A stretch of DNA of 64,000 nucleotides from Lama guanicoe (lineage: Eukaryota): the NCBI GenBank assembly GCA_013239625.1, contig MU053166.1, positions 1 to 64,000 on the forward strand, written 5' to 3'. Position numbers and translations under genes: made by a program. Below the pieces are notes generated by a model. That model saw only the letters and a program-made list of their open reading frames with translations. It was not told the DNA's origin and ran no database searches. Positions within the stretch are counted from its first letter, which is position 1, and every line of letters begins with the position of its first letter. This document shows positions 44,288-62,939 of this stretch, in pieces.

Positions 44288-44830
44288 NNNNNNNNNNNNN
44301 NNNNNNNNNNNNNNNNNNNNNNNNNNNNNNNNNNNNNNNNNNNNNNNNNNNNNNNNNNNNNNNNNNNNNNNNNNNNNNNNNNNNNNNNNNNNNNNNNNNN
44401 NNNNNNNNNNNNNNNNNNNNNNNNNNNNNNNNNNNNNNNNNNNNNNNNNNNNNNNNNNNNNNNNNNNNNNNNNNNNNNNNNNNNNNNNNNNNNNNNNNNN
44501 NNNNNNNNNNNNNNNNNNNNNNNNNNNNNNNNNNNNNNNNNNNNNNNNNNNNNNNNNNNNNNNNNNNNNNNNNNNNNNNNNNNNNNNNNNNNNNNNNNNN
44601 NNNNNNNNNNNNNNNNNNNNNNNNNNNNNNNNNNNNNNNNNNNNNNNNNNNNNNNNNNNNNNNNNNNNNNNNNNNNNNNNNNNNNNNNNNNNNNNNNNNN
44701 NNNNNNNNNNNNNNNNNNNNNNNNNNNNNNNNNNNNNNNNNNNNNNNNNNNNNNNNNNNNNNNNNNNNNNNNNNNNNNNNNNNNNNNNNNNNNNNNNNNN
44801 NNNNNNNNNNNNNNNNNNNNNNNNNNNNNN
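44288..44830. other. Assembly gap
   Basis: N run. Confidence 1.
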
Positions 44831-59969: not shown

Positions 59970-60355
59970 ACGTCTGTGAGTCTTTGTTTTGTAAATAAGT
60001 TCATTTTTCTTTTTTTTTATTCCATATATAAGTGATACCATATGGTACTTTTCTTTCTCTTTCTGGCTTACTTCAGTTAGAATGACATTCTCCAGGTCCA
60101 TCTATGTTGCTGCAAATGGCATTATTTTATTATTTTTTCTGGCTGAGTAGTATTTCATTGTATAAATATACCACAACTTCTTTACCCAGTTATCTGTCGA
60201 TGGACATTTAGTTTGTTTCTATGTCATGACTGAAACATTATGCTGTATACCAGAAATTGACACAACACTGTAAGCTGACTATACTTCGATAAAAATACAT
60301 ATGATACAAATATTACATATAATATATGTATTATATATATAAAATACAAAAAAAA
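59970..60355 (+). mobile_element. Short 5'-inverted young L1 (inverted part ~59970-60225, sense 3' end ~60226-60355)
   Basis: Antisense ORF2-end/3' UTR joined to sense atgactgaaacattatgctgtataccagaaattgacacaacactgtaagctgactatacttc plus A-rich tail; flanks aattccagtt/aaatccaatt. Confidence 0.75.
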
Positions 60356-60437
60356 TCCAATTTTGATGTTCAAGTTAATCATCTCAGACTTTGGGGTACA
60401 TCCTTTGTCTGGGTCCTCTTTTTTTAATTTTTGAAAT

Positions 60438-60636
60438 TGTCGGGAGCCCGGCCACCAGACCCTGAGGCTGTACGCACGGCGAGGCCTACAGGAGGCCCAC
60501 TACACGGCGGTGGGCCGAAAAGGTGTGGCAAGCTTAAGAGTTAAAAATACAAGGAATTCCTATTTAGGGAGGAGGCTGGTCCGAAGATAGTGAGTTATCT
60601 CAATTGATTGTTCACAAAAGAATAAAGAGGAATTGG
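60438..60636 (+). mobile_element. Truncated young LTR start (ERV2/beta-like)
   Basis: Begins TGTCGGGAGCC, like IAP/BTLTR-type termini; CpG-rich relative to flanks; no 3' CA end visible. Confidence 0.6.
60574..60616 (+). pseudogene. RNY1: 5' fragment (nt 1-43) of Y1 RNA
   Basis: GGCTGGTCCGAAGATAGTGAGTTATCTCAATTGATTGTTCACA vs human Y1 (recalled) GGCTGGTCCGAAGGTAGTGAGTTATCTCAATTGATTGTTCACA, 42/43. Confidence 0.9.
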
Positions 60637-62939
60637 AATCATCTCAGACTTTGGGGTACATCCTTTGTCTGGGTCCTCTTTTTTTAATTTTTGAAATTAT
60701 CCAGTTCTGTGCAGTCTAATAGTCCTCTTCTTCCAGTGTTTAATACTACTTTTTTTCTCCATTTTCTGTAATGAATACTTTTTGTATTAAGGCACTTAGA
60801 ATACATCAAATTCTCATTTCATTCCTGAGACTTGCTCTTAGTTTGGGCCTTATGTATACATATGCTCACCTAATATAGGAACATTTATATCCTTCAGTAT
60901 TCCCTTCGAAAATATATTCCCTGTCTTTCCAGAGAGAGAGAAGGAAGTATAGCCTTTTTTTTAAAAAAAAATCTTTCTCTTTTTTTCCTGTCTCTTTCTC
61001 TATCATTTGAAAGCCTCGACTTCAGTCTTTTGGATATTCCGCAGTGGCGGTGATGGAAGAAGAGTGGGTGGTTAGGCATCTACCTAGCTCTAATCACCGA
61101 GGTGTTTGTGTTCAACCATTAAGATGGAACTGTGCTCATTGTCAGGTTGATTACACAAGCAGAGCCTGTATACTTACTCACTTACTGGGTAGTGACGGCA
61201 GTGTTGAATCACGGCAGTAAACTGGACCATAAGGCTGTGAAGGTTTCTGCAATATCTAGGATTATCCAGTTGGGTCTAATTTGGCCAGTGCAAAAATTTG
61301 AGACACAGAAATAGTCCATCCTAATTCTAATCAGAAGCAGAGTATCAAAACTAAATAGAAATGTAAGGATATATGCTCCAAAGAACAATGCAAACACGGT
61401 CTTTTTGGGGGGAATGTCAGCTATTCAAGCCCACCATTGCTCTGGAGGATAATATTCAAGGAGTTCCTCAGCTTAATGGTGGTAATTGATTTCAAGCCCA
61501 GAGAAAGGCAATCTAAGAAATGACTGTAGCTATTCTCTGAGGAAGTGAGCAATGGAAAAGCAATCCAATAGGCATTTTGCTGTTCCCATGAGATTGTACA
61601 TATTTTCCTGTTGCTTTCAGAGTCCAGATTCTGAGGATGAACCCCCCTCCCCATTTCTTTTTAGGGGCACAAACTGGAAAATCAAAACAAACAAAAATAA
61701 TAAAACTTTAGGGATAGAATAGGTATGTGTTGATGAAAACCAAGTTTACTGTGGACTAAATCAGAGAGGAAGCACCCCTAGAGCAAGTGGGGAATATTTA
61801 GCACTGAATAAGAATTCACATTTTCCCTCTCCATAAGATCGGACATACAAATTTAACCTGACGTGGTGGCAGGACTAATGTTTTTCTGTCATCTTTTATT
61901 TTAAATAATTATCATTTCTCTTTTCCTCATAATAGTGTACATTTTATACACACACACTGTAACTTAAAGGCCAAAGCTATTCAATTACCCTGCTTGCATG
62001 ATACATGGTGATGATGGTGAAAAGCTACCTCATGTTGCAAGCATGGCATGGAATTGTACTTTTCACAGTATTGGAATTTCAAAATTGTGTACAAAAATAT
62101 TTGTCATGGATGACGTAATGGGAAGCAAAGCCTGCCATCTTAATAAGAGCTATATTGTAATGATATTGGAAACACTACACCCAAGGGATGGGAAAACAAA
62201 GCAAAATGGAAGTTTTTGAATTGAGGTGTTAACTGGTGTTTCATCTGAGAGAGATGGAATTTTTACTTACTTTATTCCAAAATTCCCTACTTCAATTTTA
62301 TTCTTCACTTGCTGACCTGTTTTCCATTAGTCTATTGCCAAAATGGGACATAATCACATATAACCCAATCAGACTGAGTCTTAAAATAGACAGACAAGAT
62401 AAGGTCAAAGAAACAGCTGAGTTTAGAGTGTCTGCCCTCTGGATTTATATTATGGACTTTGAGAGATGAAAAAGCATTCTCTGGTTTAATGAATTGAGTA
62501 TGATTTGATTCTCTATTGAATCACTGTGTGTCATTCAACCAGAAGTTCAACTTACTACTGCACCTGATTCCAGTTAAATTTTTTGAGACCCACAACTGGG
62601 GAAATTTGAAGCTGCTACCATAAGAGTAAAAGCCAAAACACCTCCGGAGATTATTTTATGCAACATCACATCACCCTGTACAACTGAAAATGCTATCAAG
62701 GACTATAAAGGTATTGTAATCTAGAAAATAATAATGGAAAATAGAAAAATAAAAGCAAACAGTTACTGCCCTATAATTTTTTAGTTGTGTGACCATCCTC
62801 AGACACAGGGAAATCTAATGACAGAAGAAAAACAGCTTAGGCAAATTTTTCTATACTTCACATGCATACCTGTTAGTATCTGAACATATTCAAGGAGTGA
62901 TTTTTGATATTATTTTTAGAAATAAGTGAAACTGAAAAA

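Follow-up and report, generated by a model that had tools for sequence, protein, structure and literature searches.

The 5′ end of Y1 RNA in the LTRs of a betaretrovirus-like lineage of Lama guanicoe, probably captured by reverse transcriptase template switching

The window, a 64,000-nucleotide stretch of the Lama guanicoe assembly, contains a fragment of an endogenous retrovirus (ERV) long terminal repeat (LTR) that carries the 5′ end of a host small RNA, Y1. We think it likely that the 5′ 43 nt of Y1 RNA were captured when reverse transcriptase switched templates, the process called "patch repair," and that the virus then spread. The features of the window copy are as follows.

60377..60437, no strand assigned: left copy of the target duplication; the exact repeat is 62 nt (60377-60438)
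60438..60636, + strand: LTR 5′ fragment of 199 bp, LTR nt 1-199, all U3, of a ~575-bp ERV2-type LTR
60438..60532, + strand: CpG-rich 5′ segment of U3, LTR nt 1 to ~95, shared with ~920-bp relatives
60533..60573, + strand: 41-nt stretch CTTAAG...GGGAGGA, directly 5′ of the Y1 piece; left boundary uncertain by ~3 nt
60574..60616, + strand: copy of Y1 RNA nt 1-43, in the same orientation as LTR transcription; 42/43 identical, G14>A
60617..60636, + strand: resumed ancestral-type U3, AAAGAATAAAGAGGAATTGG; the window copy stops here
60637..60698, no strand assigned: right copy of the target duplication

The host Y genes were located with an Rfam Y_RNA search of the window's own 2.05-Gb assembly, which gave nine matches. 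Among these, the Y1 gene (G000:C3747:1445639-1445751, minus strand) is 113 nt long and scores 81.9 bits. Window positions 60574-60616 are identical to its nt 1-43 at 42 of 43 sites, the sole change being G14>A. The earlier note on this DNA had recognized 43 nt from Y1 nt 1 with one G>A change relative to the human RNA, and comparison with the host gene confirms it. When up to three mismatches were allowed, the host 43-mer matched the 64-kb window once, with a single mismatch, and dinucleotide shuffles gave no match in 100 trials. The remaining genes of the host cluster (102, 96 and 81 nt) part from the fragment after about nt 11. Additionally, the host Y1 gene is preceded by 120 nt unlike the LTR sequence upstream of the fragment, indicating that the copy begins at the first nucleotide of the RNA and not in genomic DNA. 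The host Y RNA cluster itself (G000:C3747:1416494-1445751) packs four genes (81, 96, 102 and 113 nt) into 30 kb, and the 102- and 113-nt genes are divergent neighbors. The five Y-like matches outside it look like pseudogenes.

Identity with the host gene establishes derivation from Y1, not the status of a Y RNA gene. We rejected the fragment as a member of RF00019, as it holds nt 1-43 only, has no paired 5′/3′ stem and gives no Y_RNA match. The earlier note had looked to Rfam for confirmation, and none came: Y_RNA was reported neither in a gathering-threshold scan of the whole window nor in a scan of 60300-60800 at E≤10; the assignment comes from the host Y1 gene. This silence is what one would expect of a 43-nt 5′ half without its 3′ strand. 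Seven weak Rfam matches (U12, SNORD26 and others) lay far under the gathering score and were treated as chance. The further features described in the earlier note are all present. The Y1 piece starts 136 bp inside a segment beginning TGTCGGGAGCC (60438), GAGGA stands on both sides of it (60569-60573 and 60627-60631), and AAAGAATAAA follows it.

A search of the assembly with the 198-bp insert returned 40 scored matches. Eight of them, on eight different contigs, are full length or almost so at 97-100% identity; the other 32 extend from nt 1 to about nt 97 only, with identities of 79-93%. The segment 60438-60636 is thus multi-copy sequence, as had been supposed, with seven other loci 97-100% identical to it. 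The Y1 43-mer sits at the identical LTR position in 8/8 loci that have the surrounding LTR segment, and the piece was found nowhere else in the assembly beyond these loci and the Y1 gene. With a query of 101 nt spanning the patch, nine candidates came up, all of them accounted for by the eight LTR loci and the Y1 gene. The eight copies include four solo LTRs and, at L004, a 5′ LTR with the piece at the same site and a tRNA-Lys primer-binding site after it. Between the alternatives first raised, a Y1 sequence carried by an LTR family and a retrocopy in this one LTR, these results favor the family. The stronger form of that idea, Y1 in every LTR, stands for all eight loci of this sub-lineage but fails for the related ~920-bp LTRs, which are without Y1.

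Six of the eight Y1-bearing loci extend to ~575 bp, ending ..CTCCGGCA. These full copies have TG...CA ends, and four of the six are flanked by perfect 6-bp target duplications: AATGAC (L002), CACCTG (L003), CATCTT (L005) and GTTCTT (L007). All four are solo LTRs, and their distinct duplications mark independent integrations. L006 is a full LTR with no target duplication, and the LTR of L004 is followed by AG and then TGGCGCCCGAACAGGGAC, the primer-binding site (PBS). In all five genomic matches outside the TGG context, the 15-nt core of this 18-nt site falls where a host tRNA-Lys(UUU) gene has its 3′ end, identifying the 18-mer as a Lys primer-binding site. ARAGORN reported no tRNA at the seven loci with the exact 18-nt PBS, as tRNA genes lack CCA.

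The internal sequence joined to the Y1-LTR piece at L008/L053 was compared with Pfam. It encodes Gag_p24 (6.7e-28) and Gag_p24_C (4e-25), along with two zinc knuckles (zf-CCHC_5, 4.8e-17; zf-CCHC, 1.3e-7). The next frame encodes dUTPase (6.8e-31) and then RVP (1.7e-4), and dUTPase followed by protease is an order typical of betaretroviruses. On these sequence features, we assign the Y1-bearing LTR lineage to the class II, betaretrovirus-like (ERV2) ERVs. What began as a guess of an ERV2-like element is therefore well founded, given the 6-bp duplications, the Lys(UUU) PBS and the succession of gag and dUTPase-protease. Reverse transcriptase sequence of the lineage was not recovered, and an integrase-like stretch at C8284 was spotted by eye. 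The assembly contains no intact provirus with two Y1-bearing LTRs; internal sequence of the lineage occurs at three loci only, each truncated or scrambled.

Near LTR nt 435-455, the full copies contain TATAAATA and AGTAAA, a putative TATA box and poly(A) signal, respectively. Their position would place the Y1 piece in U3, far upstream of the promoter. The window fragment ends 10 nt past an AATAAA and is without the TATAAATA, R and U5 of the full copies. Its first 94 bp have a GC content of 0.68 and a CpG observed/expected ratio of 0.74, compared to 0.22 in the whole window.

The shorter matches reveal what the Y1 piece replaced. We fetched 14 of the 32 and tabulated the junctions of all but L020, which has two LTR starts. 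Each of the 14 matches the Y1 LTR from nt 1 to nt 91-98, at 85-92% identity. Thirteen regain homology at LTR nt 179/180, and L025 does so at nt 187. Between the two matching segments the relatives have ~430 bp, compared to 84 nt in the Y1 LTR, and their LTRs are mostly 910-935 bp long. From this two-sided homology, we conclude that an 84-nt patch, made up of the 41-mer and Y1 nt 1-43, replaced ~430 bp of U3. The 3′ 396 bp of the relatives are up to 97% identical to a Y1 LTR, as close as Y1 LTRs are among themselves. We call the ~920-bp LTRs relatives, with direct ancestry unproven, their first ~95 nt being 85-92% identical to the Y1 LTR.

At the 3′ junction, the Y1 sequence ..TTCACA meets AAAGAATAAAG where the relatives read ..GCCAAAAAGAATAAAG. 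The junction of the Y1 LTR reads ..TTCACAAAAGAATAAAG, compared to ..GAGCCA(A/G)AAAGAATAAA.. in 12 of the 13 relatives, and the same 12 of 13 continue as ..CCA(A/G)AAAGAATAAA(G/A)(A/G)GAAATTGG. Because AAAGAATAAA is found in 12/13 relatives, the sequence after Y1 is ancestral U3. Shared sequence at the Y1/U3 junction, the one junction scored, amounts to 1-2 nt and is no better than chance. Neither metagenome contigs nor viral contigs contained the exact 27-nt junction pattern.

The other half of the patch, the 41-mer, occurs exactly eight times genome-wide when up to three mismatches are allowed, always at Y1-bearing loci, and a reversed-pattern control gave no occurrence. In a search for its source, no local alignment to the 13 related LTRs rose over the score threshold. 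Its halves, searched genome-wide with up to two mismatches, gave one extra hit, at C6341:921952, which has two mismatches and is at chance level. Upstream DNA of the host Y1 gene was rejected as a source, the sequences being unlike. MAFFT placed a 10/11 core of the 41-mer (CAAgGAATTC) opposite CAAAGAATTC in the U3 of the relatives, a match too weak for homology. Either a third template or a stretch of U3 peculiar to the direct progenitor could account for the 41-mer. Around it, AAGCTT, CTTAAG and GAATTC, which we take to be restriction sites, fall within 35 nt (window 60527-60561). As eight diverged genomic copies contain this stretch, it is natural sequence, and its richness in restriction sites is most likely coincidence.

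The capture that we favor could have proceeded as follows. During minus-strand DNA synthesis through U3, reverse transcriptase would leave the viral RNA at about U3 nt 180, land on nt 43 of a co-packaged Y1 RNA and copy it to its 5′ end (nt 1). A further switch, either back to viral RNA or via a third template giving the 41-nt stretch, would let synthesis rejoin U3 at about nt 95, with ~430 bp lost and the 84-nt patch in place. The 3′ U3 is the template for both LTRs of the next provirus, and the patch would accordingly appear in every LTR of the descendants. These would keep replicating, recombine with unpatched relatives and leave at least eight germline loci. We infer the order of the template switches, and we suppose by analogy that this virus packaged Y1 RNA. 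According to PMC4997597, MLV virions contain about four Y RNA copies each, template switching can patch packaged host RNAs into the genomes of retroviruses, and a 7SL-containing retroviral recombinant is known. As a reverse transcriptase capture would have it, the insert is in the sense orientation, viral sequence has been replaced and the insert ends at the 5′ end of the donor RNA. Taken together, the sense orientation, the exact 5′-end start, the deletion at the same point and the minimal junction homology fit a template switch followed by run-off.

L1 generates Y RNA retropseudogenes, including 3′-truncated "tailless" ones, and we considered whether such a Y1 retrocopy had entered the LTR of one provirus and later spread with it. 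The fragment does resemble these retropseudogenes in starting at Y RNA nt 1 and in being truncated in the internal loop region, and it has GAGGA on both sides with A-rich sequence after it. However, the A-rich AAAGAATAAA and the right GAG(G/A)A belong to the ancestral LTR in 12/13 relatives, so they are not an A-tail and a target duplication, and the left GAGGA lies inside the 41-nt stretch that is missing from relatives. An L1 target should stay contiguous around its direct repeat; here it is not, ~430 bp of U3 having gone at the same point. Unlike L1 Y retropseudogenes, then, the piece has no flanking target repeat, no tail and a "target" of which 430 bp are missing, and it is always inside one LTR lineage. 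We consider an L1 origin very improbable. Its narrower version in the earlier note, an L1 insertion into this one LTR, is contradicted by the ancestral AAAGAATAAA and GAGGA, by the left GAGGA within the 41-mer and by the occurrence of the piece at 8/8 loci.

Repair of DNA offers another route to the same outcome. If the 3′ LTR of a provirus had been broken or deleted and end-joined with filler (Y1 cDNA plus the 41 nt) before spreading, a deletion with composite filler and minimal microhomology would be expected, and other loci of the Y1-LTR lineage do show DNA-level oddities. But this route needs Y1 cDNA in the nucleus and a sense start exactly at Y1 nt 1, and template run-off accounts directly for the start and for what the nuclear cDNA would have to supply. 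The break must also strike a 3′ LTR, and one in a germline or infectious copy that is replication-competent. Y RNA packaging and reverse transcriptase patching, by contrast, are documented routes (PMC4997597). We regard end-joining as unlikely, and template switching by reverse transcriptase as the better account of the patch.

The Y1 pieces have since diverged. Their differences from host Y1 nt 1-43 are as follows.

L001, L004, L008: 1 difference, G14A
L002: 1 difference, G14T
L005: 2 differences
L003, L006: 3 differences
L007: 4 differences

At Y1 nt 14, none of the eight copies has the G of the host gene; seven have A and one has T. Five of the six full copies have 1, 4, 3, 4 and 6 private substitutions per ~565 bp. 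The mammalian neutral rate is ~2.2e-9 per site per year. We put the insertion age, as a rough figure, at ~1-5 million years, with the caution that CpG-rich sequence decays faster.

When U3 sites inside the Y1 piece (alignment columns 149/167) were set against a 7-site haplotype in R/U5, all four combinations appeared among the six full copies. The linked R/U5 sites span alignment columns 482-521, and both of their haplotypes are also found in unpatched LTRs. Such a four-way distribution would point to recombination in heterozygous virions, between co-circulating viruses. L005 (G000:C6476:14315474-14316045) has 30 private substitutions, compared to 1-6 in the other five full copies. Fifteen of the 30 are G>A, eight of them in GA context, an excess that suggests cytidine-deaminase editing before integration.

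As far as its sequence goes, a neutral scar is the likeliest reading of the Y1 piece. With no partner strand, the fragment alone forms no Y RNA or Ro60-binding stem, and the earlier suggestion that the ERV amplifies one strand of that stem fails on the same point. Folding of the whole LTR gave a z of -1.83, with 5 of 100 shuffles as good, and no Y-like stem. The Y1 part pairs instead with distant U5 sequence, which lends no support to an RNA function.

Might the piece nevertheless have been kept as a U3 regulatory element, or as a 3′ UTR RNA element that engages Y RNA partners? The patched lineage had the fitness to reach at least eight germline loci and to recombine with relatives, and 8/8 copies differ from the host at nt 14 (7 A, 1 T). 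The change G14>A creates AGATAG, presumably a GATA-type motif. On the other side, the copies vary at Y1 nt 10, 13, 14, 25 and 31, as neutral sequence would, the partner strand for a Y-type stem is absent, and copy number is low, at 8 versus at least 32 for unpatched relatives. Retention for such a role therefore seems decidedly unlikely. We would give just as little credence to the patch as a domesticated module that aided the lineage, whether a U3 control element arising from the shared G14>A change or an RNA decoy, present in the 3′ UTR of all viral transcripts, for Ro60 or innate sensors of Y RNAs, with altered integration or reverse transcription biology. If that were true, the three of eight insertions that are non-canonical and anchored at the U3 end would reflect the altered biology.

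The window copy is a non-canonical insertion and not a normal solo LTR. Its flanks share a longest common substring of 62 nt, and BLAST of left against right gave 61/61 identical positions. Base 60438, a T, may belong to the duplication or open the LTR, which gives the duplication a length of 61-62 bp. The earlier note had seen a young ERV2-like LTR here. The ERV2-type LTR sequence is indeed present; completeness is not, as this is a truncated 199-bp fragment within a 61-62-bp duplication. We propose that a piece of viral DNA, authentic at its U3 end (TG...) and broken off at nt 199, became joined to the chromosome via a 61-62-bp stagger. The likely route would be one in which integrase joins one end only and host repair closes the other. 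The empty target site would read ...TTGAAATTATCCAG... once.

Irregular structures are found at further loci of the lineage. Three copies, those of the window, L004 and L008, begin exactly at the TG of the LTR. At L004/L041 (G000:C5404, ~3693630-3694460), the Y1-bearing LTR and PBS are fused to 219 bp of gag NC with loss of the leader, MA and CA, and the whole unit lies inside a perfect 37-bp target duplication. At L008/L053 (G000:C8676:20365634-20367700), LTR nt 1-182, including Y1, is joined head-on to an inverted fragment that runs from protease back through dUTPase, NC and CA. We looked for a target duplication at L008/L053 and found none. The third locus with internal sequence of the lineage, L085/L056 (G000:C8284:3110589-3111963), is 97-100% identical to that of L008. 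It starts exactly at the PBS, with no LTR, and runs into integrase-like sequence and then scrambled and inverted gag/pro; it looks like a captured aberrant reverse-transcription product. Our tentative explanation for the irregular loci, which we hold as possible and not as probable, is that integrase joined one end only, or that unfinished products of reverse transcription were captured, and that host repair then closed the insertion.

Errors of assembly or gap filling, or rearrangement of an ordinary solo LTR on the spot after its insertion, could in principle produce an odd copy in the window, which has four runs of N inside it. The nearest of these (44288-44830) is 15.7 kb away. Furthermore, the window fragment has a private base (alignment column 65) that is absent from the other seven copies and shows that it was not pasted from another locus. 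L004 is an independent locus with the same architecture and a 37-bp repeat, and had a normal solo LTR suffered a deletion, its duplication would be of 6 bp and not of 61 bp. Seventeen public DNA runs from five organisms contained 0.62-0.77 of the sampled words, and none contained all, a result that decides nothing. We find an artefact or rearrangement extremely hard to credit.

How do the patch and its carrier compare with known systems? The patch-repair or tertiary-template recombinants described in PMC4997597, such as the avian 7SL case, are alike in having a short sense insert from a host non-coding RNA packaged in virions, viral sequence lost at the same site and little or no junction homology. 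Those recombinants are experimental or somatic, whereas here the patch is germline-fixed, lies in U3, derives from Y1 and is found at eight loci. In LTR-mediated retroposition, as presented in PMC5131818, host RNA also replaces part of an LTR element by template switches, and the chimeras can undergo further rounds of retroposition, a feature shared with our lineage. In those cases mRNAs replace internal coding sequence with a median of 6 bp of microsimilarity, whereas in our lineage the fragment comes from a Pol III small RNA, lies in U3 and shares 1-2 nt at its junction. The main text of PMC5131818 mentions Y RNA, snRNA and 7SL zero times. In literature listings and the opening lines of abstracts, no Y RNA patch was described for any ERV. 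The Y1 patch is a natural, germline-fixed case of a known mechanism, and its donor RNA is new.

The window copy has its own parallel in the non-classical HERV-K insertions (PMC3625200), which are likewise short ERV2 fragments without a 6-bp duplication and for which break repair has been invoked. The HERV-K fragments are truncated at both ends and accompanied by target deletions, whereas the window copy and L004 keep the exact 5′ end of the LTR and have duplications of 61-62 and 37 bp. These two loci are candidate germline examples of one-ended integration.

Natural, germline-fixed captures of small non-coding RNAs are scarce, and patching and Y RNA packaging are known from cell culture. On our reading, this family of loci would record a betaretrovirus-like virus with Y1 RNA beside its genome during reverse transcription. 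It would also record a U3 that stayed replication-competent with ~430 bp removed and a patch added, and a virus that recombined with unpatched relatives. The 84-nt patch is a unique tag with which the lineage could be traced across individuals and species.

Three further observations concern other loci. On the minus strand of the window, positions 1321-1393 give a tRNA-like match (Rfam tRNA, 40.7 bits) with several non-canonical pairs, which could be a tRNA-derived repeat or a pseudogene. L020 (G000:C5323:389669-391438) has two LTR 5′ starts 860 bp apart on the same strand and one LTR 3′ part, which may reflect a tandem arrangement or partial duplication of an unpatched-type LTR. Finally, at G000:C8676:25587454-25587957, an unpatched-type LTR start (81% identical) lies ~486 bp upstream of an exact Lys PBS and may represent another short LTR deletion variant.
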